A stretch of DNA of 64,000 bases. Origin: Macrostomum lignano. Its lineage: Eukaryota. The stretch is taken from positions 124,001 to 188,000 of the forward strand of contig NIVC01000505.1 of NCBI GenBank assembly GCA_002269645.1. The letters run 5' to 3'. The position numbers and the translations under genes are program-made. The notes below the pieces were generated by a model. That model had not been told where the DNA came from. It worked only from the letters and a program-made list of their open reading frames with translations, and made no database searches. Shown one piece after another: positions 1,859-31,198 of this stretch (the first letter of the stretch is position 1; the number at the start of each line of letters is the position of its first letter).

Positions 1859-2760
1859 TGTGTCACAGTGCTCCCTTGGTGCAAGTGCACTTTGATAGTT
1901 GTTGACTTTGGTAGTTGATTATTGTTACCCCCCCCCCCGGCTCAAGCCAGTCTGGAGCTATGAGCCCTTTGGCTGAGCCTCTGCTCTCTTTCTCTCTCTC
2001 TCTCGCCTTGGCTGTTTAGCCCTTTGGCTAGCCGTGCTGATTGGCTGGGCCTCTGCTCTCTCTCCCTCTCCCTGGCCGTGCGCGCTTCCACCCTCCCCTC
2101 GCCGCAGCCAATCAGCTGTCAATCAGCTCCATTGTTTAAGCCCTTTCTCCCCCCCCCTTGTTTGCGCCCCTGCCCCTTTTTACTCGTTATTTAAGGCGAC
2201 GCTCAGACCCCGCCCCTTTTCTCACCGTGCCTGCGCCCATTTGCGCCCACCGCGATAAATAAACGAACGTGACCAGCGATCAACCGTAAAGACGGTCTCT
2301 TACTGCGAAGACTCAATTTATTGCAATCGATCGGCCTTCCCGTGTATGAGTGCTATAATCGACCCGGCCCGGTAAGCTGTCGAGACAATTGCCTGTGTTC
2401 CTCGGGGTCGCTCTCCTGATCTCTCTCTCTCTCACTCTCTCCTCAGTCTGACTCACCAGGCTGTCGAGTGGCCGACCGCCCACAGCCCTCTCTCTTTTCC
2501 TTGATTCACCAGGCTGTCGAGTGGCCGACCGCCCGCAGCCCTCTCTCTCTTCCTTGACTCACCAGGCTGTCGAGTGGCCGCCCGCCCACAGCCGCCCCTC
2601 CCCTCTCTCTCGACTTCTCAACCTTGACCTCCCCCGAAGTGTCCGTACGCCTCGGGGTCGCCGATCGAGCTCGTAAGCCCTGGGCAGTCTAGTACCCGAA
2701 CCCCGACACCGCTACCCGTCGCCCAACCCGGCCGTGCCAGCGAGGAAGGGGGATACAACA
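1859..2760 (+). repeat. 5' LTR (902 bp; lacks the first 10 nt present in the 3' LTR)
   Basis: Matches 9454-10359 except four homopolymer length differences. Ends ...ACAACA; CCAAT-type boxes at ~2037-2115; AATAAA 2258-2263; three 53-bp repeats at ~2450-2610. Confidence 0.97.
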
Positions 2761-2761
2761 T

Positions 2762-2779
2762 TGGCGCCCGAACAGGGAC
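2762..2779 (+). promoter_or_regulatory. Primer-binding site complementary to tRNA-Lys(UUU)
   Basis: TGGCGCCCGAACAGGGAC, 1 nt after the 5' LTR; the same 18-mer as the tRNA-Lys3 PBS of HIV-1. Confidence 0.95.
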
Positions 2780-2803
2780 TGCTCAGTTTGCTTGTGAGCT
2801 GTC

Positions 2804-3784
2804 ATGGCGAATGTGGACGAACTGATTCGGCTGCTAGCCGAGCGTCTGCGAGCGGATGGACCAGCCCAGCCACCGAGACTCCCGAAGCCCGTGAAGTACA
2901 CGTCAAGCATGAATTTTCGACTCTGGCTGCGCTCTTTCAACGCTTATTGCGACTCCGCCGAGATTGACGAGGAGCATCGCCGCGAGCACTTGATGAGCAT
3001 GCTGGATCTCGCTACGGCGTACGCTGCGGTCGATAATCTGAACCTGCCGGGACCCGACGATCCTGTGGATCCGCTGGACTACGAGGGATTCACCGCCCGG
3101 TTGGAGGCTCGCTTCTCCCGGTACCGGACAGAGCAGGACAGCAAGGTCGAGCTAAAAACCCGAGATCAGAAGGATGGCGAGTCGTTGGAGGCCTACGCAG
3201 ATGCTCTCCTTGAACTGGTGCGCTGTGCCTACCCGGCGGCAACTGCCGAGCTGCAGGACGACCTCGCGAAGGATCGCTTCATGCAAGGGGTGAGACTCTC
3301 CGACCTCCAGCGAGAGAAGCTCTACCTGCAGCAGCCCGAAGGTCTGGTGGCAGCACAACGCGCGGTGAGGCAGCTCGAGGCGGCGTCCAAGGCGGCGAAG
3401 GGACCGAGATCGGCTGGAGCAACTGGCAGCGGCCACCGAGGAGTCTTCGTGGTGAGCGGCGCGGCGGAATCTGTGCCTCGGGAGGATGGAGCCTACTCCC
3501 AAGAAAAGGACAAAGAGCTCGAGGAGTTGAAGAAACTGGTGAGGCAGCTTCAAGGCAAAGTGGTTCAGCTCGAGTCGCTGAGAGCGGAACCGCATAGCAG
3601 CGCCGCAGCTCGACCGACCGACTCCGACGAAGGCGACCATCAGAAGCCTCGACGAACGGGAGGAATTCGCTGCTTCTTCTGCAACAAGCCAGGGCACATC
3701 GCGACTAACTGCCCAACCCGTCAGCAACAGGGAAACGGCAAGGGGAACTTCCGCAGGGGCGAGGGAGTTCCGCCGAGACAGTAG
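2804..3784 (+). CDS. gag: Gag (capsid + CCHC zinc knuckle)
   Basis: 326 aa, intact; MHR-like QKDGESLEAYADAL; CFFCNKPGHIATNC = C-X2-C-X4-H-X4-C. Confidence 0.95.
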   Translation: MANVDELIRLLAERLRADGPAQPPRLPKPVKYTSSMNFRLWLRSFNAYCDSAEIDEEHRREHLMSMLDLATAYAAVDNLNLPGPDDPVDPLDYEGFTARLEARFSRYRTEQDSKVELKTRDQKDGESLEAYADALLELVRCAYPAATAELQDDLAKDRFMQGVRLSDLQREKLYLQQPEGLVAAQRAVRQLEAASKAAKGPRSAGATGSGHRGVFVVSGAAESVPREDGAYSQEKDKELEELKKLVRQLQGKVVQLESLRAEPHSSAAARPTDSDEGDHQKPRRTGGIRCFFCNKPGHIATNCPTRQQQGNGKGNFRRGEGVPPRQ

Positions 3785-3791
3785 AGGCCCC
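3730..3791 (+). promoter_or_regulatory. -1 ribosomal frameshift signal (slippery G GGA AAC + stem-loop/pseudoknot)
   Basis: Heptamer 3730-3736 is in the gag frame and shifts into the pol frame (open from 3709). 7-nt spacer; stem 3744-3752/3763-3771 (9 bp, one GU); loop GGGGC 3756-3760 complementary to GCCCC 3787-3791. Confidence 0.8.
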
Positions 3792-3888
3792 AACCCGAGA
3801 CGAAGATGCAGCCCCGGAGCGACGTGCAGCAGGATGTCCGGCGGACTGCTCAAGAGATAGAGATCAACCTGCAACAGCTTTTAATCCC

Positions 3889-6800
3889 GTGTCAATCTAC
3901 GTGTCGGTAAAAATTGGCGAGATTGAGTTGCCGTGTCTGTTGGATTCGGGCTCGGTCATGTCGCTGGTGAACGAGAGGACCTGGCGGCAGTTGAGCAAGT
4001 CGGTTCGAGTTGAACTCAGCCCTTCGGAAACCCACCTGATCTCAGCGAACGGAACTCCCATGAATGTGTTAGGATGCGCGTCGCTTCCCCTACAGTTCGG
4101 ATCAGAAACTTTACAGACGCCAATTGCGGTGGTCCAAGGGGTCGGCTACGAACTGTTGCTAGGCACCGACTTCTTACGCCGCCACCGGTGCCAAATCGAT
4201 TTCGCCGGAGGAGTTTTCCGCGTGAACGGTTCACGTGTGCCAATCCGAGAGACCAAGCACAAACCAGTCGTCTGCCGGTTGTACCTGAACGAAAACTTGA
4301 TCATTCCGGCCAATCACGAACGGACCGTCTCAGCCAGGATTCGTAGAACAGCGACACAGAATTCCGGAGTGCTCGGCGTCGCCGAGCCAGACGAAAAACT
4401 GAAGAGCGATGAGAGACCAATGCTAGCCAGGAGCGTCTGCCTCATCCAGCAGGGCAACACCCTACCAGTTCACTTCGCGAATGTCACGGACTCCGAGCTG
4501 CGGCTGCGGAAGGGAGCTGTCATCGGCTGGTTTCGACCATCAGATCCGGCTCAAGAGGTTCTGGTAGCCAGCATCGAAGAGCAAGCGTCGGTTTTACGAC
4601 CCAGCTGCGATCCATGGGACCCAGAGGCGGCACTGAACCAGCACGGCTCCAAGCAGCTCACGGGGGCAGACAAAGCGAGCTTCCTAAGATTGGTGAATCG
4701 ATACGCAGATGTTTTCGCAGAGAGTACAGCGCGCCTCGGGACGACGGACATCGTGCAGCATGAAATTGAGACCACCGGAACAGCCGTAAAACAGCCTCCG
4801 CGACGGCTACCGCCACATTGGCGCGGCGAAGTCGACCGACAAATCGACGAGCTTTTGGCAACGAAGATGATTGAACCGACCCAATCGCCGTGGAGTTCGC
4901 CAGTGGTCTGTGTCCGTAAGAAGAATGGGGAACTGCGACTGTGTGTCGACTACAGAGAGTTGAATCAACGAACTGTCAAGGACGCCATAGCAATCCCGCG
5001 TGTCGATGACGCACTTGAAGCGCTCGGAGGTGCGGCTGTATTTTCGACGCTCGACCTGTGCTCCGGCTATTGGCAAGTTAAGGTCAAAAGGGAGGATCAA
5101 GAAAAGACTGCTTTTGTCATTCCGCATCGGGGGCAATTCGCGTTCAAGGTGCTGCCCTTCGGATTGACCAATGCGCCGGCGACATTCACAAGGTTGATGA
5201 ATATGGTACTACACGACCTTCTGTGGAAAATGGCGCTCGTCTACATCGACGATATCATCATTTGGTCCCGAACTGTCAGCGAGCATCTAACGAATCTCGA
5301 GGCGGTATTCCAGCGCCTGCGCGCAGCCAACTTGAGGCTAAAGCCATCTAAGTGCAGATTCCTGGCCGATGAGGTCAAATTCCTTGGCCACGTCGTGTCA
5401 AAGGACGGAATCGATGTCGACCCGGAGAAGATCAAGGAAGTCCGTGACTGGAGCATTCCAAGAAATGCAAAAGACCTTCAGTCGTTCCTGGGTCTGGCTG
5501 GTTACTACCGAAACTTCATACCAGAATTCTCGATAGTCGCTGCACCACTTTTTGATCTGACAAAGAAAGACAAGCCGTTCAGTTGGAGAGAGGAACACGA
5601 TGAGGCCTTCAAAAAGCTGAAAGAAGAATTGACCGGTTGCCGCGTGATGGCCTACCCGAACTTCGACCCCACGGCTGGTGAGTTCATCTTGGATACCGAT
5701 GGAAGTACCCGACAGGGTCTCGGAGCAGTCTTGTCGCAGGTACAAGAAGACGGGTCAGAGCGGGTTATTGCGTACGGGAGTCGGCGTCTGCAAGGGGCCG
5801 AATTCAACTATTGCACGACACGAATCGAGCTCCTGGCGCTGGTGACATTCGCAGAGAGGTTCCGGTACTATCTACTTGGCCGGAGGTTCCGGGTGCGCAC
5901 CGACCACGCAAGTCTGCAGTGGCTCCGAAGTATGAGGCAGCCGGAAGGCCAGTTGGCTCGGTGGATGGAGAGGTTGGCGCCATTCGACTTCGCAGTGGAG
6001 CATCGGCCAGGGGCGCGTCATCAGAATGCGGACGCGCTGTCACGCAAGCCGCCGCGACGACATCCCGAAATGGATAACTGCCCGTCGTGCCGGACTGATG
6101 ACCTCCCCGGGGTCAGGGTAACGACGCTGCTCGGGTTGCTCAGCCGAGATGAGCTGGCAGCAGCACAAGCTGTGGACAACGACATCGCTCCAGTTTACCA
6201 GTCGATGCACGCCGGCCGAGCAAACGAAGAGCCACCTCGGGGTGCGTCACCAACGACCCGAGCCATCTGGGCACAAAAGCCTCGGCTGGAAATTGTGGAC
6301 AACACCCTCGTCATCAAGGATCTGGGACGTCACCCACCGCGGGCTGTTCTCCCGAAGAAATTGATCCCCGACGCTCTGCAGACGCTGCACTCTGGACCAG
6401 GAGGTGGACACTTCGGCGTAGCAAAGACTCTGGAGAAAGTCAGGAACCGATTCTGGAGACCCGGCTTGAAGCGAGAGGTCGAGGAGTTTGTGCGAAGGTG
6501 TGACGACTGTAACCGGAGCAAGCCCGGGATGCGGCGGAAGGCCCCATTGGAGCCGATTCCCAGCAGCCATGTGTTTGAAAGAGTGATGGTGGATTTGATT
6601 GGACCACTGCCAACCAGCGTCCGAGGCAACAAATACATACTGACGATGCAGGACGCGTTCAGTAAGTGGCCAGTGGCAGTACCGGTGCCAGATCAGACGG
6701 CCAGCACCTGTGCAAGGGCAATGCTCGAGGAGTGGGTCTGTCACTACGGAGCCCCAGGAACAATCCACTCGGATCAGGGAGCCAATTTCGAGTCGCAATT

Positions 6801-7707
6801 GATCGGCCAGCTGTGCGAAAGTCTGAATATCCGAAAGACGCGTACGACCGCCTATCACCCCTCTGGAAACGGCCAAGTGGAAAGCTTCAATAAGACGCTG
6901 ACTGCAGTGATCCGGGCGCACCTGGTGAAGGAGCCGGATCAGAGGCGGTGGGACGAATTCGTTGCCCCGGCGCTCATGGCGTATCGCTCCAGTGTGCACC
7001 GCGGCACCGGCTACTCACCCTTCTTCCTTCTGCATGGTCGCGAGATGTCTCTGCCAGTTGACTTGGGAGTGGCGCGCCCACTGGACATCGAACCGTACTG
7101 CGAGGAAGTCCAGAACCTGCGGGAGACGCTCGTGGAAGCCCATCGGGTGGTGCGTGAGAGAATAACGTCATATCAACGAGTGCAGAAAGACTGGTACGAC
7201 CGGAAGGTGAAGGGTCGAGAATTCGTGGCTGGCGACGAGGTGTTCGTCTACAACCCCGTGTTGAAGGCCGGTGCCAAAGCGAAGCTCCACTCACCCTGGA
7301 CCGGACCTGCCGTAGTTCTCGAGAAGCTGTCGGAGACGCGCTATAGGATTCGACAGGAAGGTCGACGGAAGCCGATCAAGGTGGTGCACTTTAACAACCT
7401 CCTGCCTCGGTACCGGAAGTACCCGGTCGACGGCACCGGTGGCCCTCGGCGTCCTGCACCAAGGAGGTACCACCCAGGTCCTGCTCAAGAGACGGAATCC
7501 GTCAGGGAGGACTCGCAGGAATCGGACGATGAGGATGAGGAGCGATGGTGGCGACATTCCGGGCGGGTTCGAGAGGAGGGAGAACCAATGGATGTGCAGC
7601 AGCCAGGAGTGCAGCCGCAGCCGGAAGCGCCAGTTGAAGTCATCGAAGGTCGACCCCAGAGGGATCGAAGGGTTCCGCAGCGTTATGGAACGCCCGTTTA
7701 TTATTAA
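3889..7707 (+). CDS. pol: Pol polyprotein PR-RT-RNaseH-IN (reading frame open from 3709; made as Gag-Pol by -1 frameshift)
   Basis: PR LLDSGS; RT LVYIDD; RNase H FILDTDGS..GLGAVL; IN HHCC (H..H..CDDC), D (MVDLIGP), D (HSDQG), E (GQVESFN), GPY/F-like WTGPAVV; no stops or frameshifts. Confidence 0.97.
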   Translation: MSIYVSVKIGEIELPCLLDSGSVMSLVNERTWRQLSKSVRVELSPSETHLISANGTPMNVLGCASLPLQFGSETLQTPIAVVQGVGYELLLGTDFLRRHRCQIDFAGGVFRVNGSRVPIRETKHKPVVCRLYLNENLIIPANHERTVSARIRRTATQNSGVLGVAEPDEKLKSDERPMLARSVCLIQQGNTLPVHFANVTDSELRLRKGAVIGWFRPSDPAQEVLVASIEEQASVLRPSCDPWDPEAALNQHGSKQLTGADKASFLRLVNRYADVFAESTARLGTTDIVQHEIETTGTAVKQPPRRLPPHWRGEVDRQIDELLATKMIEPTQSPWSSPVVCVRKKNGELRLCVDYRELNQRTVKDAIAIPRVDDALEALGGAAVFSTLDLCSGYWQVKVKREDQEKTAFVIPHRGQFAFKVLPFGLTNAPATFTRLMNMVLHDLLWKMALVYIDDIIIWSRTVSEHLTNLEAVFQRLRAANLRLKPSKCRFLADEVKFLGHVVSKDGIDVDPEKIKEVRDWSIPRNAKDLQSFLGLAGYYRNFIPEFSIVAAPLFDLTKKDKPFSWREEHDEAFKKLKEELTGCRVMAYPNFDPTAGEFILDTDGSTRQGLGAVLSQVQEDGSERVIAYGSRRLQGAEFNYCTTRIELLALVTFAERFRYYLLGRRFRVRTDHASLQWLRSMRQPEGQLARWMERLAPFDFAVEHRPGARHQNADALSRKPPRRHPEMDNCPSCRTDDLPGVRVTTLLGLLSRDELAAAQAVDNDIAPVYQSMHAGRANEEPPRGASPTTRAIWAQKPRLEIVDNTLVIKDLGRHPPRAVLPKKLIPDALQTLHSGPGGGHFGVAKTLEKVRNRFWRPGLKREVEEFVRRCDDCNRSKPGMRRKAPLEPIPSSHVFERVMVDLIGPLPTSVRGNKYILTMQDAFSKWPVAVPVPDQTASTCARAMLEEWVCHYGAPGTIHSDQGANFESQLIGQLCESLNIRKTRTTAYHPSGNGQVESFNKTLTAVIRAHLVKEPDQRRWDEFVAPALMAYRSSVHRGTGYSPFFLLHGREMSLPVDLGVARPLDIEPYCEEVQNLRETLVEAHRVVRERITSYQRVQKDWYDRKVKGREFVAGDEVFVYNPVLKAGAKAKLHSPWTGPAVVLEKLSETRYRIRQEGRRKPIKVVHFNNLLPRYRKYPVDGTGGPRRPAPRRYHPGPAQETESVREDSQESDDEDEERWWRHSGRVREEGEPMDVQQPGVQPQPEAPVEVIEGRPQRDRRVPQRYGTPVYY

Positions 7708-7728
7708 GAGCGGACGTGAGTGCGTGCG

Positions 7729-7960
7729 CATCCGCGTCATCACCTGCGTCATCAACATTTGGTTCGAAGCATCATCCGCGTCATCACCTGCGTCATCAAC
7801 ATTTGGTTCGAAGCATCATCCGCGTCATCACCTGCGTCATCAACATTTGGTTCGAAGCATCGTCTGCGTCATCACCCGCGTTATTGAAAACTGGGCTCGT
7901 GTTATTGCCTCTGCTTCACAAACAAAAATATATATTTCCCCTCTTAAGGCCCGTCAGTGG
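7729..7960 (+). promoter_or_regulatory. Candidate internal promoter: 3.5 x 44-bp repeats rich in CGTCA (CRE half-site), TATA-like 7929, Inr-like TCAGT 7954-7958
   Basis: Repeat units start at 7729, 7773, 7817 and 7861 (partial); TATATAT at 7929-7935 lies 27 nt before the A of TCAGT. Function is inferred. Confidence 0.45.
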
Positions 7961-8082
7961 AGGTCCCACCTGCCCAACCCTGCCATCAGGGATGAAGGAT
8001 CGGCGCCCCAAAGAGGCTCGAAGGAACCATTGCCCTGCTCTCAAAAGTGAGTCGTGGTTGTTGCAGGCACTGCTTTCCGGGC

Positions 8083-8493
8083 ATGGACCTCTACGCCGAG
8101 TTTGGTGTCAGCCCCTTCGCGACGGAGGAGGAGCTGCGACGTGCGTACCGCCGTGAGAGCCTGCGACGGCACCCCGACAAGTGTGGACCCGGCGGAACGG
8201 AGAATTTCCAGAGGCTGCAGCATGCGAGTGCGGTCCTGCTGTGTCCGTTTCGACGAGCGCTGTACGACCGGTTCGGGCAGGATGCCGTTAGCAACCCGCT
8301 CGAGTGCGCCCGGTATTTTGTCCCGCCGGATGGGATGTGCGTCCCGGAGGAGTTTGTCGTAACGATTGAAGACGAAACAGAAGAGTCAGACGAGGACAGG
8401 GAGTCGGAGGAAGCGAGCGTGGTGGTTGCGGCGGCGAGGAGACTGCTCAGAGCTGCTGTGAAATCACGCAGTCAGAGGAAGAAGAGCTCTTGA
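8083..8493 (+). CDS. J-domain (DnaJ/Hsp40 class C-like) protein encoded inside the retrotransposon, 136 aa
   Basis: MDLYAEFGVSPFATEEELRRAYRRESLRRHPDK...NFQRLQHASAVL..RRALYDRFG covers all four J-domain helices with an intact HPD (8170-8178), then an acidic tract and a basic tail. The ORF track starts at the upstream GTG 8047. Confidence 0.9.
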   Translation: MDLYAEFGVSPFATEEELRRAYRRESLRRHPDKCGPGGTENFQRLQHASAVLLCPFRRALYDRFGQDAVSNPLECARYFVPPDGMCVPEEFVVTIEDETEESDEDRESEEASVVVAAARRLLRAAVKSRSQRKKSS

Positions 8494-8516
8494 ATGAATC
8501 CGACGGCGAAACTTCG

Positions 8517-8963
8517 ATGTCAGAAGACGAACCGGAGCTCGTCATCGACCAACGGGAGTCGCCAGCGTGGCTGATGAGGAGCGAGCCGAGTACCGAGGTG
8601 GAATACACCTGGAGCGGGGAGGCAACGCAGCGAAGAGCTCGAATCCGGTCGGAGCTTCGGCACGCTTTGTTGTCGGGGAGTCCAGCTGCGATGTTCCGGC
8701 TTTTGACTGAAATGGTGGGACTGTGCGGCAGCGAGCGGCTGGATCATCGACGCGAAATCGCCGAGCTTTTGGCTCAGACTGTCAAGTTCATTCTCCGTGA
8801 CATCAGCGCCAAGTGTCGGGGTCATGCTCGGCGTGTCTGGCGGCGGCCTGCCTTCAAGCGAAGCACTCGGTTCGTCATGAGTGTTGCGATCCCTCAGTTT
8901 GAACTAATCGACGGAGGACGCGTGTTGGGGTTGTTGCGCCGGGCGGCGGAGGTGGCGGTCTAG
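8517..8963 (+). CDS. Orphan accessory ORF of the retrotransposon, 148 aa (frame open from 8370)
   Basis: First ATG at 8517, 24 nt after the J-ORF stop; acidic N-terminus, helical-looking core, Arg-rich C-terminal part; no motif recognised. Confidence 0.6.
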   Translation: MSEDEPELVIDQRESPAWLMRSEPSTEVEYTWSGEATQRRARIRSELRHALLSGSPAAMFRLLTEMVGLCGSERLDHRREIAELLAQTVKFILRDISAKCRGHARRVWRRPAFKRSTRFVMSVAIPQFELIDGGRVLGLLRRAAEVAV

Positions 8964-9099
8964 GGGGTTCTGGGGCAGGATGCCAGGGCGGGCAAGAGAC
9001 CTTCACTCCTTCATTTCATCCCATCTCTCCTCTGATCGTCGTTGTGATCCCTCTGTTTGGCACTGGGAGCGGCCCCGAAGGAAGGGCGGGGAACACTCT

Positions 9100-9350
9100 C
9101 GGCCATGCCCGGCGCTCTCGGTCGTTGCCCGGCATTCTCGGCCGCTGCCCGGCATTCTCGGCCGCTGTCCGGCATTCTCGGCCATGCCCGGCGTTTTCGG
9201 CCACAGTCCGGCATTCTCGGCCGTGCCCGGTGTTCTCGGCCATGCCCGGCGTTTTCGGCCACAGTCCGGCATTCTCGGCCGTGCCCGGTGTTCTCGGCCT
9301 GTCCGACATCCTCGGCCCCTGTCCTGCGCTCTCGGCCGCTGCCTGACACT
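9100..9350. repeat. GC-rich 19-20-bp tandem repeat (GCCCGGCATTCTCGGCCGCT-like) in the element's 3' untranslated region
   Basis: About 12 degenerate units with a duplicated ~58-bp higher-order block, between ORF2 and the PPT. Confidence 0.85.
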
Positions 9351-9432
9351 CTTGGTCTCTTTCATTCAGTTTCATTTCATTACATTTTTTTTTTCATTTT
9401 CATTCAGTCAAAGCGCGTCGTTTTCTTTTTTT

Positions 9433-9443
9433 AGGGGGGAGGG
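9433..9443 (+). promoter_or_regulatory. Polypurine tract
   Basis: AGGGGGGAGGG preceded by a T-tract and abutting the TG of the 3' LTR. Confidence 0.92.
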
Positions 9444-10359
9444 TGTTGTGACCTGTGTCACAGTGCTCCCTTGGTGCAAGTGCACTTTGATAGTTGTTGA
9501 CTTTGGTAGTTGATTATTGTTACCCCCCCCCCCCCGGCTCAAGCCAGTCTGGAGCTATGAGCCCTTTGGCTGAGCCTCTGCTCTCTTTCTCTCTCTCTCT
9601 CGCCTTGGCTGTTTAGCCCTTTGGCTAGCCGTGCTGATTGGCTGGGCCTCTGCTCTCTCTCCCTCTCCCTGGCCGTGCGCGCTTCCACCCTCCCCTCGCC
9701 GCAGCCAATCAGCTGTCAATCAGCTCCATTGTTTAAGCCCTTTCTCCCCCCCCCCCTTGTTTGCGCCCCTGCCCCTTTTTACTCGTTATTTAAGGCGACG
9801 CTCAGACCCCGCCCCTTTTCTCACCGTGCCTGCGCCCATTTGCGCCCACCGCGATAAATAAACGAACGTGACCAGCGATCAACCGTAAAGACGGTCTCTT
9901 ACTGCGAAGACTCAATTTATTGCAATCGATCGGCCTTCCCGTGTATGAGTGCTATAATCGACCCGGCCCGGTAAGCTGTCGAGACAATTGCCTGTGTTCC
10001 TCGGGTCGCTCTCCTGATCTCTCTCTCTCTCACTCTCTCCTCAGTCTGACTCACCAGGCTGTCGAGTGGCCGACCGCCCACAGCCCTCTCTCTTTTCCTT
10101 GATTCACCAGGCTGTCGAGTGGCCGACCGCCCGCAGCCCTCTCTCTCTTCCTTGACTCACCAGGCTGTCGAGTGGCCGCCCGCCCACAGCCGCCCCTCCC
10201 CTCTCTCTCGACTTCTCAACCTTGACCTCCCCCCGAAGTGTCCGTACGCCTCGGGGTCGCCGATCGAGCTCGTAAGCCCTGGGCAGTCTAGTACCCGAAC
10301 CCCGACACCGCTACCCGTCGCCCAACCCGGCCGTGCCAGCGAGGAAGGGGGATACAACA
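9444..10359 (+). repeat. 3' LTR (916 bp)
   Basis: Starts TGTTGT directly after the PPT and ends ACAACA (6-bp terminal inverted repeat); AATAAA 9857-9862. Confidence 0.97.
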
Positions 10360-10970
10360 TAGACACGTAAAAGATGTGTGTGACATTAATACATTAATTG
10401 GGAATGCGTGTGACAAGTAAGGAATGATTTTGAATTTCACAAAAAAGTCAATTAGCTAATATATCTGTGATATTACCATCTGTACATAACTGTAACATGG
10501 GTTTGTGTGATTATAAAACTAATTACGGAATACACGCAGGTATACGTACTGTATTTAATATATAGCGTTTAAACAAATCAATTTGTACCTAACAAAACTT
10601 TGCCACACTTGGCTGACGTCAACTGGCGCGTCTGAGCTGCTGGAAAAATATTTATAAGATTGATTTCTTAGAAAACCGCACGCTCTAATATCGTTAAAAT
10701 CTCACTTGAGTGCAATATTGCTGATACAGAAAGTTTTCCATTCTTTATTACTATACCTCAGCTTCTTAGCTGAAGCTTACCTAGCTGAGTTGCTAATGGA
10801 ACAGCTTGTCAACAAAGAAAGCTTTACGAAAATAAACTGCACAAAAACAGGCATGTTGTATTCAAACACGAGCATCTGATCTGCTTGCAACAGAAATCGA
10901 TCGCTGTTTTTGCGCGTCAAAAAATTGATTTTTTTCGCGTAAAACCATAAAATAGTTGCTGAAATTCTGT

Positions 10971-11560
10971 GGCTCATGGGGGGAATTGCTGAGATGTCAA
11001 GGCTCATGGGGGGAATTGCTGAGATGTCAAGGCTCATGGGGGAATTGCTGAGATGCCAAGGCTCATGGGGGAATTGCTGAGATGCCAAGGCTCATGGGGG
11101 GAATTGCTGAGATGTCAAGTCTCATATCCGGGGGAATTGCTGAGATGTCAAGGCTCATGGGGGGAATTGCTGAGATGTCAAGGCTCATGGGGGAATTGCT
11201 GAGATGTCAAGGCTCATGGGGGAATTGCTGAGATGCCAAGGCTCATGGGGGAATTGCTGAGATGCCAAGGCTCATGGGGGGAATTGCTGAGATGTCAAGT
11301 CTCATATCCGGGGGAATTGCTGAGATGTCAAGGCTCATGGGGGGAATTGCTGAGATGTCAAGGCTCATGGGGGGAATTGCTGAGATGTCAAGGCTCATGG
11401 GGGGAATTGCTGAGATGTCAAGGCTCATGGGGGGGATTGCTGAGATGCCAAGGCTCATGGGGAGAATATTACTGAGATGTCAAGGCTCATAGGGAGAATA
11501 TTACTGAGATGTCAAGGCTCAAGGGGAGAATATTACTGAGATGTCAAGGCTCATGGGCAG
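10971..11560. repeat. 29-31-bp minisatellite GGCTCATGGGGGAATTGCTGAGATGTCAA
   Basis: Directly visible tandem array. Confidence 0.9.
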
Positions 11561-13062: not shown

Positions 13063-13136
13063 GGCCGAGTAGCTCAGTTGGTTAGAGCGTCGTGCTGATA
13101 ACGCGAAGGTCGAGGGTTCGAGCCCCTCCCCGGCCA
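13063..13136 (+). tRNA. tRNA-Ile, anticodon GAT (13097-13099)
   Basis: 74-nt cloverleaf: D GCTC/GAGC, anticodon stem TCGTG/CGCGA, loop CTGATAA, T stem GAGGG/CCCTC, acceptor with one A-C mismatch. A box TAGCTCAGTTGG, B box GGTTCGAGCC, T6 terminator 13141-13146. Confidence 0.88.
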
Positions 13137-25915: not shown

Positions 25916-26414
25916 GATCTCTTAAACCCCATCTCATTATAATCTCAAATCTTTCTACTGCAATAAGCTGAATGTTCGCCAACCAACTGCTCCATCTACT
26001 GTACTCAATTAACCTTCATTACACAAGAGCTACAAGTTGCCACACGAGAAAAAAAGCAGTCTTACAGAGCTTCTGCAAGGCAGAAAGAGTTCTGCCAAGT
26101 CCGTCTTCCAGTAGCCAACTGGAAATGTATTGATCTCTAGAAGCGAGTAAGTTTGCTCTGGTTGAAGTGTTTCACTGGTTGCTATTCCTCATCTGCCAAG
26201 TTAACCCTGTCTTCCTTGCCTTCCTTGCAAAAAATTCTCATTCTGCAGAAATTCTAGAGCAAAAAGCAAGCATAAATGTGAGCTGTCAATCAGAAGTATT
26301 TGCTACAATCCGATTGGCTATGAATGAGCAAGTGGGCACTGGATGAGGTATGTATGCTAACCTTAGTTGGGAATAGTGAAAGTTCTAGTTCTAATCCCTC
26401 TGAAGATAGTCTTG

Positions 26415-29400
26415 TCCTCAGTTTAGGCGCCATAGAATCCTCAGTTTAGGAGCCATAGAATCCTCAGTTTTAGAGCCATAGAATTCTCAGTTTAAGCGCC
26501 ATAGAGTCCTCAGTTTAAGCGCCATAGAATTCTCAGTTTAAGCGCCATAGAGTCCTCAGTTTAAGCGCCATAGAATCCTCAGTTTAAGCGCCATAGAATC
26601 ATCAGTTTAAGCGCCATAGAATCCTCAGTTTAAGCACCATAGAATCCTCAGTTTAAGCGCCATAGAATCCTCAGTTTAAGCGCCATAGAGTCCTCAGTTT
26701 TAGAGCCATAGAATCCTCAGTTTTAGAGCCATATAATCCTCAGTTTTAGAGCCATAGAATCCTCAGTTTAAGCACCATAGAATCCTCAGTTTAAGCACCA
26801 TAGAATCCTCAGTTTAAGCGCCATAGAATCCTCAGTTTAAGCACCATAGAATCCTCAGTTTAAGCACCATAGAATCCTCAGTTTAAGCGCTATAGAATCC
26901 TCAGTTTAAGCACCATAGAATCCTCAGTTTTAGAGCCATAGAATCCTCAGTTTTAGAGCCATATAATCCTCAGTTTTAGAGCCATAGAATCCTCAGTTTT
27001 AAAGCCATATAATCCTCAGTTTTAGAGCCATAGAATCCTCAGTTTAAGCGCCATAGAATCCTCAGTTTAAGCACCATAGAATCCTCAGTTTAAGCACCAT
27101 AGAATCCTCAGTTTAAGCACCATAGAATCCTCAGTTAAGGCGCCATAGAATCCTCAGTTTAAGCGCCATAGAGTCCTCAGTTTAAGCGCCATAGAATCCT
27201 CAGTTTAAGCGCCATAGAATCCTCAGTTTAAGCGCCATAGAATCCTCAGTTTAAGCACCATAGAATCCTCAGTTTAAGCGCCATAGAATCCTCAGTTTAA
27301 GCGCCATAGAGTCCTCAGTTTAAGCACCATAGAATCCTCAGTTTAAGCACCATAGAATCCTCAGTTTAAGCACCATAGAATCCTCAGTTTAAGCACCATA
27401 GAATCCTCAGTTTAAGCGCCATAGAATCCTCAGTTTAAGCACCATAGAGTCCTCAGTTTAAGCACCATAGAATCCTCAGTTTAAGCACCATAGAATCCTC
27501 AGTTTAAGCACCATAGAATCCTCAGTTTAAGCACCATAGAATCCTCAGTTTAGGCGCCATAGAATCCTCAGTTTAAGCACCATAGAATCCTCAGTTTAAG
27601 CACCATAGAATCCTCAGTTTAAGCACCATAGAATCCTCAGTTAAGGCGCCATAGAATCCTCAGTTTAAGCACCATAGAATCCTCAGTTTAAGCGCCATAG
27701 AATCCTCAGTTTAAGCGTCATAGAATCCTCAGTTTAAGCACCATAGAATCCTCAGTTTAAGCGCCATAGAGTCCTCAGTTTTAGAGCCATAGAATCCTCA
27801 GTTTTAGAGCCATATAATCCTCAGTTTTAGAGCCATAGAATCCTCAGTTTAAGCGCCATAGAGTCCTCAGTTTAAGCGCCATAGAATCCTCAGTTTAAGC
27901 GCCATAGAATCCTCAGTTTAAGCACCATAGAGTCCTCAGTTTAAGCACCATAGAATCCTCAGTTTAAGCACCATAGAATCCTCAGTTTAAGCACCATAGA
28001 ATCCTCAGTTTAAGCACCATAGAATCCTCAGTTTAAGCACCATAGAATCCTCAGTTAAGGCGCCATAGAATCCTCAGTTTAAGCACCATAGAATCCTCAG
28101 TTTAAGCGCCATAGAATCCTCAGTTTAAGCGTCATAGAATCCTCAGTTTAAGCACCATAGAATCCTCAGTTTAAGCACCATAGAATCCTCAGTTTAAGCG
28201 CCATAGAATCCTCAGTTTAAGCACCATAGAATCCTCAGTTTAAGCACCATAGAATCCTCAGTTTAAGCGCCATAGAATCCTCAGTTTAAGCACCATAGAA
28301 TCCTCAGTTTAAGCACCATAGAATCCTCAGTTAAGGCGCCATAGAATCCTCAGTTTAAGCACCATAGAATCCTCAGTTTAAGCGCCATAGAATCCTCAGT
28401 TTAAGCGTCATAGAATCCTCAGTTTAAGCACCATAGAATCCTCAGTTTAAGCACCATAGAATCCTCAGTTTAAGCGCCATAGAATCCTCAGTTTAAGCAC
28501 CATAGAATCCTCAGTTTAAGCACCATAGAATCCTCAGTTTAGGCGCCATAGAATCCTCAGTTTAAGCACCATAGAATCCTCAGTTTAAGCACCATAGAAT
28601 CCTCAGTTTAAGCACCATAGAATCCTCAGTTAAGGCGCCATAGAATCCTCAGTTTAAGCACCATAGAATCCTCAGTTTAAGCGCCATAGAATCCTCAGTT
28701 TAAGCGTCATAGAATCCTCAGTTTAAGCACCATAGAATCCTCAGTTTAAGCGCCATAGAGTCCTCAGTTTTAGAGCCATAGAATCCTCAGTTTTAGAGCC
28801 ATATAATCCTCAGTTTTAGAGCCATAGAATCCTCAGTTTAAGCGCCATAGAGTCCTCAGTTTAAGCGCCATAGAATCCTCAGTTTAAGCGCCATAGAATC
28901 CTCAGTTTAAGCACCATAGAGTCCTCAGTTTAAGCACCATAGAATCCTCAGTTTAAGCACCATAGAATCCTCAGTTTAAGCACCATAGAATCCTCAGTTT
29001 AAGCACCATAGAATCCTCAGTTTAAGCACCATAGAATCCTCAGTTAAGGCGCCATAGAATCCTCAGTTTAAGCACCATAGAATCCTCAGTTTAAGCGCCA
29101 TAGAATCCTCAGTTTAAGCGTCATAGAATCCTCAGTTTAAGCACCATAGAATCCTCAGTTTAAGCACCATAGAATCCTCAGTTTAAGCGCCATAGAATCC
29201 TCAGTTTAAGCGTCATAGAATCCTCAGTTTAAGCACCATAGAATCCTCAGTTTAAGCGCCATAGAGTCCTCAGTTTTAGAGCCATAGAATCCTCAGTTTT
29301 AGAGCCATATAATCCTCAGTTTTAGAGCCATAGAATCCTCAGTTTAAGCGCCATAGAGTCCTCAGTTTAAGCGCCATAGAATCCTCAGTTTAAGCGCCAT

Positions 29401-31198
29401 AGAATCCTCAGTTTAAGCACCATAGAGTCCTCAGTTTAAGCACCATAGAATCCTCAGTTTAAGCACCATAGAATCCTCAGTTTAAGCACCATAGAATCCT
29501 CAGTTTAAGCACCATAGAATCCTCAGTTTAAGCACCATAGAATCCTCAGTTAAGGCGCCATAGAATCCTCAGTTTAAGCACCATAGAATCCTCAGTTTAA
29601 GCGCCATAGAATCCTCAGTTTAAGCGTCATAGAATCCTCAGTTTAAGCACCATAGAATCCTCAGTTTAAGCACCATAGAATCCTCAGTTTAAGCGCCATA
29701 GAATCCTCAGTTTAAGCACCATAGAATCCTCAGTTTAAGCACCATAGAATCCTCAGTTTAAGCGCCATAGAATCCTCAGTTTAAGCGCCATAGAATCCTC
29801 AGTTTAAGCACCATAGAATCCTCAGTTTAAGCGCCATAGAATCCTCAGTTTAGGCGCCATAGAATCCTCAGTTTAAGCGCCATAGAGTCCTCAGTTTAAG
29901 CACCATAGAATCCTCAGTTTAAGCACCATAGAATCCTCAGTTTAAGCGCCATAGAATCCTCAGTTTAAGCGCCATAGAATCCTCAGTTTAGGCGCCATAG
30001 AATCCTCAGTTTAGGCGCCATAGAATCCTCAGTTTAAGCGCCATAGAATCCTCAGTTTAAGCGCCATAGAATCCTCAGTTTAGGCGCCATAGAATCCTCA
30101 GTTTAAGCACCATAGAATCCTCAGTTTAAGCACCATAGAATCCTCAGTTTAAGCACCATAGAATCCTCAGTTTAAGCGCCATAGAATCCTCAGTTTAAGC
30201 ACCATAGAATCCTCAGTTTAAGCGCCATAGAATCCTCAGTTTAAGCACCATAGAGTCCTCAGTTTAAGCACCATAGAATCCTCAGTTTAAGCACCATAGA
30301 ATCCTCAGTTTAAGCACCATAGAATCCTCAGTTTAAGCGCCATAGAATCCTCAGTTTAAGCGCCATAGAATCCTCAGTTTAGGCGCCATAGAATCCTCAG
30401 TTTAAGCACCATAGAATCCTCAGTTTAAGCGCCATAGAATCCTCAGTTTAAGCGCCATAGAGTCCTCAGTTTAAGCACCATAGAATCCTCAGTTTAAGCA
30501 CCATAGAATCCTCAGTTTAAGCGCCATAGAATCCTCAGTTTAAGCGCCATAGAATCCTCAGTTTAGGCGCCATAGAATCCTCAGTTTAGGCGCCATAGAA
30601 TCCTCAGTTTAAGCGCCATAGAATCCTCAGTTTAAGCACCATAGAGTCCTCAGTTTAAGCACCATAGAATCCTCAGTTTAAGCACCATAGAATCCTCAGT
30701 TTAAGCACCATAGAATCCTCAGTTTAAGCGCCATAGAATCCTCAGTTTAAGCGCCATAGAATCCTCAGTTTAGGCGCCATAGAATCCTCAGTTTAAGCAC
30801 CATAGAATCCTCAGTTTAAGCGCCATAGAATCCTCAGTTTAAGCGCCATAGAATCCTCAGTTTAGGCGCCATAGAATCCTCAGTTTAAGCACCATAGAAT
30901 CCTCAGTTTAAGCGCCATAGAATCCTCAGTTTAAGCGCCATAGAGTCCTCAGTTTAAGCACCATAGAATCCTCAGTTTAAGCACCATAGAATCCTCAGTT
31001 TAAGCGCCATAGAATCCTCAGTTTAAGCGCCATAGAATCCTCAGTTTAGGCGCCATAGAATCCTCAGTTTAGGCGCCATAGAATCCTCAGTTTAAGCGCC
31101 ATAGAATCCTCAGTTTAAGCGCCATAGAATCCTCAGTTTAAGCGCCATAGAATCCTCAGTTTAGGCGCCATAGAATCCTCAGTTTAAGCACCATAGAA
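26415..31198. repeat. 23-bp satellite CATAGAATCCTCAGTTTAAGC(A/G)C, about 4.8 kb
   Basis: Roughly 200 units with few variant types and duplicated blocks. Confidence 0.95.

Follow-up and report, generated by a model that had tools for sequence, protein, structure and literature searches.

Why should an LTR retrotransposon encode a partner for Hsp70? The question is raised by a 64-kb stretch of the Macrostomum lignano genome (hereafter the window, meaning the whole of the DNA analysed), in which an initial annotation had noticed an open reading frame beginning with a J-domain at the place where env usually sits. That placement is borne out, with pol ending at 7707, the 3' LTR starting at 9444 and the frame lying between them. 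Our answer, which we hold to be close to certain, is that this frame, here called ORF3, belongs to one Ty3/Gypsy clade as a conserved accessory gene, and that it codes for a J-domain joined by an acidic linker to a five-helix domain. That it is a functional accessory gene of the LTR retrotransposon is strongly supported by the sequence comparisons.

The element in the window

The window contains a complete LTR retrotransposon at 1859-10359, all of whose features lie on the plus strand. It opens with a 5' LTR (1859-2760) that begins 10 nt inside the normal terminus, and closes with a 3' LTR (9444-10359, TGTTGT...ACAACA) delimited by LTR comparison and the element ends. A primer-binding site (2762-2779) and a polypurine tract (9433-9443), both read directly from the sequence, complete with the two TG...CA LTRs (the 5' end being incomplete in this copy) the outline of a Ty3/Gypsy element. 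The order of domains, gag and then protease, RT, RNase H and integrase, is likewise that of the superfamily: gag (2804-3784, 326 aa) has a capsid-like region and a CCHC zinc knuckle, and pol is an open frame of 1332 codons (3709-7707). Pfam recognizes the zinc knuckle in gag and, in Ty3/Gypsy order, the RT, RNase H and integrase of pol; the protease match is weak (Pfam E 0.066), with a D-S-G motif just upstream of the first pol ATG. The slippery-type heptamer GGGAAAC at 3730-3736 is in the right frame for a putative -1 shift from gag into pol. Pfam shows no integrase C-terminal chromodomain in the window pol, the feature by which a chromovirus would be recognized.

Aligned over 911 columns, the two LTRs differ by four gaps and by no substitution within the repeat (one mismatch lies just outside it), and the window insertion is therefore very young. 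It is flanked by an 8-nt duplication (1851-1858 and 10360-10367), as opposed to the 4-nt target-site duplication seen in two of three other copies read, the third of which abuts a tandem copy. The 5' junction at 1851-1868 is aberrant, with 10 nt of LTR missing and 8 nt of target duplicated instead of 4, and would resemble a one-ended integration plus repair. Our guess is that the element belongs to the Gmr1/Osvaldo clade, a placement based on the 4-nt duplication and on the primer-binding site, which we take to be of tRNA-Lys type. The heat-induced M. lignano family Mlig-id38 was considered and rejected, as the window LTR is ~915 nt long rather than ~340 nt and lacks a three-unit HSE; the genome has the Mlig-id38 motif at 51 other places, in pairs ~5.9 kb apart.

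Short tandem arrays that vary among copies occupy the pol-ORF3 spacer (7729-7884, 44-nt unit) and the 3' untranslated region (9097-9355). PolyQ-rich host coding sequence flanking the insertion and large 22-23-nt minisatellite arrays together account for 121-800, 10977-11500 and 26277-31000. ARAGORN calls a tRNA-Ile gene at 13063-13136 with a GAT anticodon, which is unusual in animals.

The ORF3 protein and its predicted message

The frame had originally been described as an intact, intronless ORF of 136 aa. An intronless frame does run from ATG to stop at 8083-8493, but it is not intact, being broken at ~8405-8410. The break is absent from 18 of the 19 other loci of the window subfamily (only L001 has the same one). 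Upon comparison with the 20 top loci, the J ORF and a 148-aa ORF at 8517-8963 prove to be a single ATG-started frame of 293 aa in 12 of them (L005-L015 and L017), and the unbroken frame is seen in contigs of all four sequencing runs. Since the break, in the acidic tract, is absent from sister loci, the basic tail KSRSQRKK is out-of-frame sequence 3' of it, and as such is ruled out as a localisation signal. The 136-aa protein with its basic tail is thus a product of the break in the window copy, and the C-terminal domain had been overlooked. The break itself may be either a real mutation or an assembly error, the latter being plausible because pol frames differ widely among near-identical copies. 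The remainder of the original description stands: the J-domain is complete and carries HPD (PF00226 over residues 2-62, E 1.1e-13, the whole model matched), an acidic tract follows it, and there is neither a G/F region nor a zinc finger in ORF3.

The protein accordingly falls into three parts, namely the J-domain (8083-8286, HPD at codons 30-32), a short conserved extension with a disordered acidic linker (8287-8618, including the broken site), and a net basic C-terminal domain (8619-8963). A structure model of the 293-aa form gives the J-domain at pLDDT ~90, a low-confidence linker at residues 100-174 and five C-terminal helices; modelled alone, the last domain reaches pLDDT 92 and pTM 0.84 and so appears confidently folded, while matching no known family. 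The linker has 30 acidic versus 4 basic residues, and the C-terminal domain 23 K/R versus 11 D/E, with a conserved arginine-rich loop. For the J-domain, the nearest PDB relatives are of the DNAJB1/Sis1 type (sequence match to E 1.5e-13); its model superimposes on PDB J-domains at rmsd 0.9-2 A, but with fold-match E values >0.001.

ORF3 has a J fold whose HPD sits between helices II and III, and it is free of G/F, zinc-finger-like region and beta-sandwich, as are class C J-proteins. HPD-bearing J-domains trigger Hsp70, and class C proteins pick their client through another domain, according to the available sections of a J-protein review (PMC13254874). On this established footing, we think it quite probable that ORF3 is a class C J-domain protein whose HPD would trigger host Hsp70 and whose C-terminal domain would select one client; the Hsp70 hijacking is predicted from the conservation of HPD, and the C-terminal domain is likely the client-binding part.

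Searches with this C-terminal domain return chiefly its own kin. A profile run against 1.84 billion proteins gave 10 matches, comprising 8 relatives and 2 unrelated repeat proteins; a J-domain with HPD is present in 6 of the 8 relatives and, via a cluster mate, in one more, the last being a fragment. Two M. lignano database proteins are near letter-for-letter identical to sister subfamilies, and UniRef holds one chimeric gene model labelled 'J domain-containing protein' with the element not noted. In word-indexed protein searches the 136-aa form had no match and the 293-aa form matched a single bacterial DnaJ, and the ESM Atlas gave no usable match for the C-terminal domain or for whole ORF3. 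Nothing at E<=0.001 emerged from a fold search of the C-terminal domain in PDB or viral structures. The best VIA-align score, Z 8.6 (rmsd 2.8, 87 aligned), was to cobalamin-binding helical caps; because it lies below the helical-bundle bar, the domain is given no fold assignment. No env family or fold is among the matches listed for ORF3 in the family and fold searches, the protein starting with a J-domain, and no LxCxE motif is conserved in the ORF3 alignment.

How might such a gene, placed behind pol, be expressed? Judging from the sequence, ORF3 is very likely made from an env-like spliced mRNA, with a donor in the LTR joined to an acceptor behind pol. The first exon of the spliced subgenomic mRNA of env can supply a start codon. 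In the window LTR, a TATA-like box (TATTTAA, 2188-2194, a presumed promoter element) and AATAAA (2258-2263, a putative poly(A) signal near the R end) are followed by a predicted coding exon 1 (2346-2371), with ATG at 2346 and a phase-2 donor after 2371; the predicted acceptor, TTGCAG at 8061-8066, lies 16 nt 5' of the ATG at 8083. This arrangement recurs, with a TATTTA box 165-235 nt 5' of the donor in the LTRs of subfamilies A, B, E, H, J and K, the donor coming after the TATA box and AATAAA, and an acceptor-like AG at or just 5' of the J start in the subfamilies printed.

An in-frame start would be reached by three different routes in subfamilies A, B and D. Subfamily A, that of the window, has an ATG in both exons: ATG 2346, 26 nt 5' of the donor, is in frame with ATG 8083 across the predicted junction, whereas unspliced it terminates immediately. 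In subfamily B no ATG precedes the J-domain; one lies instead 23 nt 5' of the donor in an LTR that otherwise does not align with that of subfamily A, and there the phase agrees and the D-P-A codons are identical. Subfamily D has an exon ending in A and TG after the acceptor, so that an in-frame ATG would be formed across the predicted junction. For subfamily C, where the LTR has a decayed appearance, no clear splice case emerges. The joints listed for four runs guessed as RNA (30 of 30 bins covered) do not include one from LTR to ORF3, which contigs of these runs cannot exclude.

Between AATAAA and exon 1, 20 nt from each, lies a 42-nt copy of the host spliced leader (2284-2325, with a second copy at 9883-9924 in the 3' LTR). 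It matches the leader exon of the SL RNA gene exactly, with the final TG missing, in 5 of 6 places read, the sixth running into coding-like sequence, and it agrees with the published 35-mer leader of M. lignano as given in the accessible part of PMC8629364. Across the genome the stretch has 80 matches at <=2 mismatches, split between LTRs of the window subfamily and SL RNA gene arrays. Contig depth is 28,000-75,000 in the bin containing 2284-2325, with adapter ends lying just 5' of the stretch. The copy is absent from the LTR regions read of subfamilies B, E, F, H and J, and is thus a recent gain; it may have arisen when trans-spliced element RNA was reverse-transcribed with a jump to the 3' end at the poly(A) site. 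Separately, two runs have contigs with a joint between window 8892 and the spliced leader plus TG. At 8892 there is a minus-strand AG and no plus-strand AG; this is possibly antisense trans-spliced RNA, or a chance match.

Distribution, variants and selection

The initial annotation had proposed asking whether the J ORF and the ORF behind it travel with this gag-pol clade, and genome searching answers that they do, in multiple copies and in many diverged subfamilies. The search with the J ORF gave at least 149 matches among 150 scored candidates. RTs of the clade's subfamilies are 57-63% alike, and behind at least 84 of the best 100 RT matches (within 5 kb, same strand) lies a piece of ORF3: a J match in at least 64, a C-terminal match only in 6 more, and a TatD-like part in another 14, with no ORF3 piece among the matches listed for 16. 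These counts set the best 100 RT matches against 130 of 149 J matches (19 second pieces being dropped) and 90 of 91 C-terminal ones; 63 of the 64 J matches fall 1.7-2.1 kb downstream of RT. In each of four diverged elements read over 9 kb, an open ORF3 (283-328 aa, 29-34% identity) lies behind pol. A sample of 14 otherwise unexplained J matches comprised 10 that look like host DnaJ genes and 4 element pieces. Two of five ORF3 relatives were compared with the genome, one giving a match of <=43% and the other none at E<=1e-25, which suggests further carriers outside the present assembly; among metagenome contigs, the genomic context of relative P0008 was not found.

Several rearranged loci were met along the way. 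Elements in tandem with a common LTR, or else duplications within an element, occur at G000:C3538, C594, C2157 and L034 (a 3.3-kb pol-ORF3 repeat in the last); long low-complexity tandem arrays, open in some frames, fill the gag-protease gap at L031:5600-7100 and L032:7000-8050; and an unrelated RT, Penelope-like by appearance, is inserted on the minus strand 3' of a relative's pol (L038:2-1540).

Natural variants of ORF3 provide built-in controls, in that it has gained a chromodomain or a TatD-like domain, lost HPD, or is absent. One subfamily has an HP1/Swi6-type chromodomain in the ORF3 linker (PF00385, E 1.4e-12; L033:6702-6875), with two of the three cage aromatics and the third replaced, and the domain is also present in relative P0009. 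Another branch carries a TatD-like domain appended to the end of ORF3 (E 1.1e-7; at least 39 places), degenerate at L024:194-940, L037:1-513 and L039:160-1701, with a metal-ligand histidine replaced. Where this domain lies only ~1.75 kb after RT (C222, C150, C109 and C2475), the J and helical parts thus seem to have been deleted. Subfamily K keeps ORF3 open over 571 codons in many copies, with HPD lost and the C-terminal domain kept; as it is abundant without HPD, Hsp70 recruitment would not be needed by every carrier. Finally, a six-copy subfamily (RT 59% identity; L035 and L036, at G000:C23 and C1445) has no ORF3 in the 1.8 kb behind pol in two of two copies, and represents either a natural control or gene loss.

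Purifying selection and HPD conservation, which the original note had set as checks, are both found. By the Nei-Gojobori method, 12 of 14 comparisons of sister subfamilies give a dN/dS of 0.11-0.23, values that are rough because dS is 0.8-2.0, and several partners are broken copies; a pair with the HPD-less subfamily gives 0.41, and one comparison is saturated and undefined. Of 17 element J-domains, 15 retain HPD. Both paired tests put the J-domain at 0.11-0.125 versus 0.21-0.23 for the C-terminal domain, and these figures bear on a reading that we consider decidedly improbable, in which the helical domain does the essential job (element RNA binding or export, for example, like Rev or C. elegans CERV) and the J-domain is helpful and dispensable. 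That domain is basic with a conserved arginine-rich loop, subfamily K retains it despite a decayed J-domain, and such exporters are made from spliced accessory mRNA (PMC10309623, in the part available). Against this stand the stronger constraint on the J-domain in both tests and the keeping of HPD in nearly all of the aligned rows.

The origin of the gene was examined by phylogeny against host DNAJ genes, as had also been proposed. On a tree of 76 columns, leaving out two element copies and two near-duplicate host rows, the 17 element-type J-domains form one group on one side of a branch, apart from 8 host and 1 bacterial sequence, with support 95/99. Element and sampled host J-domains share 38-46% identity, and that of ORF3 is like those of classes A and B as far as the YD.FG extension. 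Integrase and ORF3 trees agree on two close pairs, deeper nodes lacking resolution; a single old capture followed by inheritance alongside pol would fit best. The converse, that ORF3 is neutral cargo from a one-off captured piece of host DnaJ mRNA, is scarcely credible: it can draw on the broken window copy and on the class A/B-like character of the J-domain, but the gene spans subfamilies at ~30% protein identity, its dN/dS falls well short of 1, identity to the sampled host J-domains does not exceed 46% and the splice phases are conserved. One-off host transduction with neutral decay, named by the original note as what would undo it, is contradicted by the multi-copy state, the host identity of at most 46% and the purifying selection. 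The note's core claim of a Ty3/Gypsy lineage with a kept J-domain accessory gene holds against this and the other refutations it listed.

Candidate roles and known counterparts

To what would ORF3 direct Hsp70? We tentatively favour, at somewhat under an even chance for the whole chain, a nuclear or chromatin complex by which the host keeps the element in check. ORF3 would be translated from the env-like spliced mRNA, its HPD would trigger host Hsp70, its C-terminal domain would pick one client, that client would be the restraining complex, and Hsp70 so directed would dismantle or loosen it, as SV40 T antigen does with Rb-E2F. Viral J-proteins are a precedent for parasite-encoded Hsp70 adaptors (PMC13254874, available sections), and J-proteins occur inside silencing complexes (PMC10651127, likewise in part). 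The nuclear or chromatin nature of the client is suggested by the add-on domains, which are chromatin or nucleic-acid readers: for it we count the chromodomain insertion, the TatD-like addition and the basic C-terminal domain beside a very acidic linker. Against it, the chromodomain is found in one subfamily only, with its third cage aromatic missing, and the TatD-like ligand histidine is replaced. Stated for the clade, and again as something a little less than an even bet, these elements may long have encoded an Hsp70 adaptor re-aimed by swapped reader domains (helical, HP1-type chromodomain, dead TatD) so as to dismantle silencing or chromatin complexes.

Chromovirus chromodomains steer integration, a fact that fits equally well a reading in which ORF3 serves the element's own machinery. 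On that account, which we regard as possible if rather unlikely, ORF3 is a private co-chaperone through which Hsp70 would reach Gag particles, RT or the integration complex for assembly, opening or dismantling, like auxilin on clathrin, with added chromodomains tethering the machinery to target chromatin. Hepadnaviral RT, for one, depends on chaperones. The two resolved nodes show ORF3 and pol descending together, the predicted spliced ORF3 mRNA would arise alongside gag-pol, and class C J-proteins do specialise on one client such as clathrin cages (PMC13254874, in the sections available). Weighing on the other side, close relatives apparently without ORF3 or HPD still amplify, most Ty3/Gypsy elements are established to do without such a gene, and the swapped-in chromo and TatD-like domains look host-facing. 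A complex prediction for the Gag capsid region with the C-terminal domain scored 0.00, which weighs neither for nor against contact.

We consider it improbable that ORF3 merely diverts Hsp70, whether by disturbing the chaperone loading of PIWI with piRNA or by inducing a heat-shock response as phage Rki does, with silencing weakened as the outcome. Hsp70 can collapse piRNA biogenesis in Drosophila (10.1101/423210), phage Rki stabilises sigma32 (PMC13254874), and heat shock is exploited by other M. lignano LTR families (PMC12801592), all three sources being cited from available parts. A mere decoy, however, needs no conserved C-terminal domain under selection, as the paired tests indicate for ORF3; three-unit HSEs are absent from the window element and from those LTR regions that were read (L032 has one, within pol); and the tested heat-induced Gmr1/Osvaldo family, Mlig-id38, is a different, 5.9-kb element.

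The aiming of Hsp70 at a restraining host complex, our preferred reading, would if true be a new kind of transposon counter-defence. To our knowledge, animals offer few examples of counter-silencing or chaperone factors encoded by transposons. Because the element is young and multi-copy, and resides in a transgenic, RNAi-tractable worm, the use of Hsp70 by a retroelement is directly testable.

The initial annotation knew of no Ty3/Gypsy family with a J-domain gene, and we too found none by title and abstract; Repbase, GyDB, subscription journals and bioRxiv supplements may mention one. The two DnaJ passages checked in the retrotransposon literature are unrelated to any element-encoded J-domain gene, 'transpos' has no match in the J-protein review (PMC13254874), and neither 'transpos' nor 'retro' has one in PMC10410713. 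Accessory third genes of LTR elements and virus-encoded J-proteins are thus known separately, and a retrotransposon J-domain gene was not found described.

Among systems that are close in one respect or another, heat-activated, HSE-bearing M. lignano LTR families share host, superfamily and a heat-shock link with the window element, and differ in using promoter elements where the latter encodes a chaperone adaptor (PMC12801592, from the accessible portion, whose main text has no mention of DnaJ and whose listed supplement matches are host transcript rows). Errantivirus and retrovirus env has the same post-pol position and a spliced subgenomic mRNA, here predicted; ORF3, by contrast, has a J-domain of cytosolic type at its N-terminus, is modelled as a set of soluble helical domains and matched no env family. 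Bdelloid rotifer LTR retrotransposons have non-env ORF3 genes, including a GDSL esterase and a DEDDy exonuclease (PMC5408684), and plant LTR elements bear additional ORFs (PMC7264820, PMC9289625). These cases are alike in the captured and kept third gene between pol and 3' LTR and in modular domain swapping. They differ in cargo, which in M. lignano is a J-domain co-chaperone with a helical domain of no known family, 'DnaJ' having no occurrence in the available parts of those papers.

On the protein side, class C (type III) J-proteins such as auxilin, HscB and Arabidopsis SILENZIO likewise have a J-domain free of G/F, zinc finger and beta-sandwich together with a separate specialist domain, whereas ORF3 is encoded by a mobile element and its partner domain belongs to no known family. 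Virus-encoded J-proteins, namely polyomavirus T antigens, phage Rki and the HSV-1 ICP22 mimic (PMC13254874, sections available), share with it the parasite-encoded N-terminal J-domain with HPD and a client-binding part of their own. The ORF3 carrier differs in being an LTR retrotransposon, with a C-terminal domain that matches no viral structure at E<=0.001 and with no conserved LxCxE in the alignment; if our reading is right, ORF3 would be the retrotransposon counterpart of the T-antigen J-domain.
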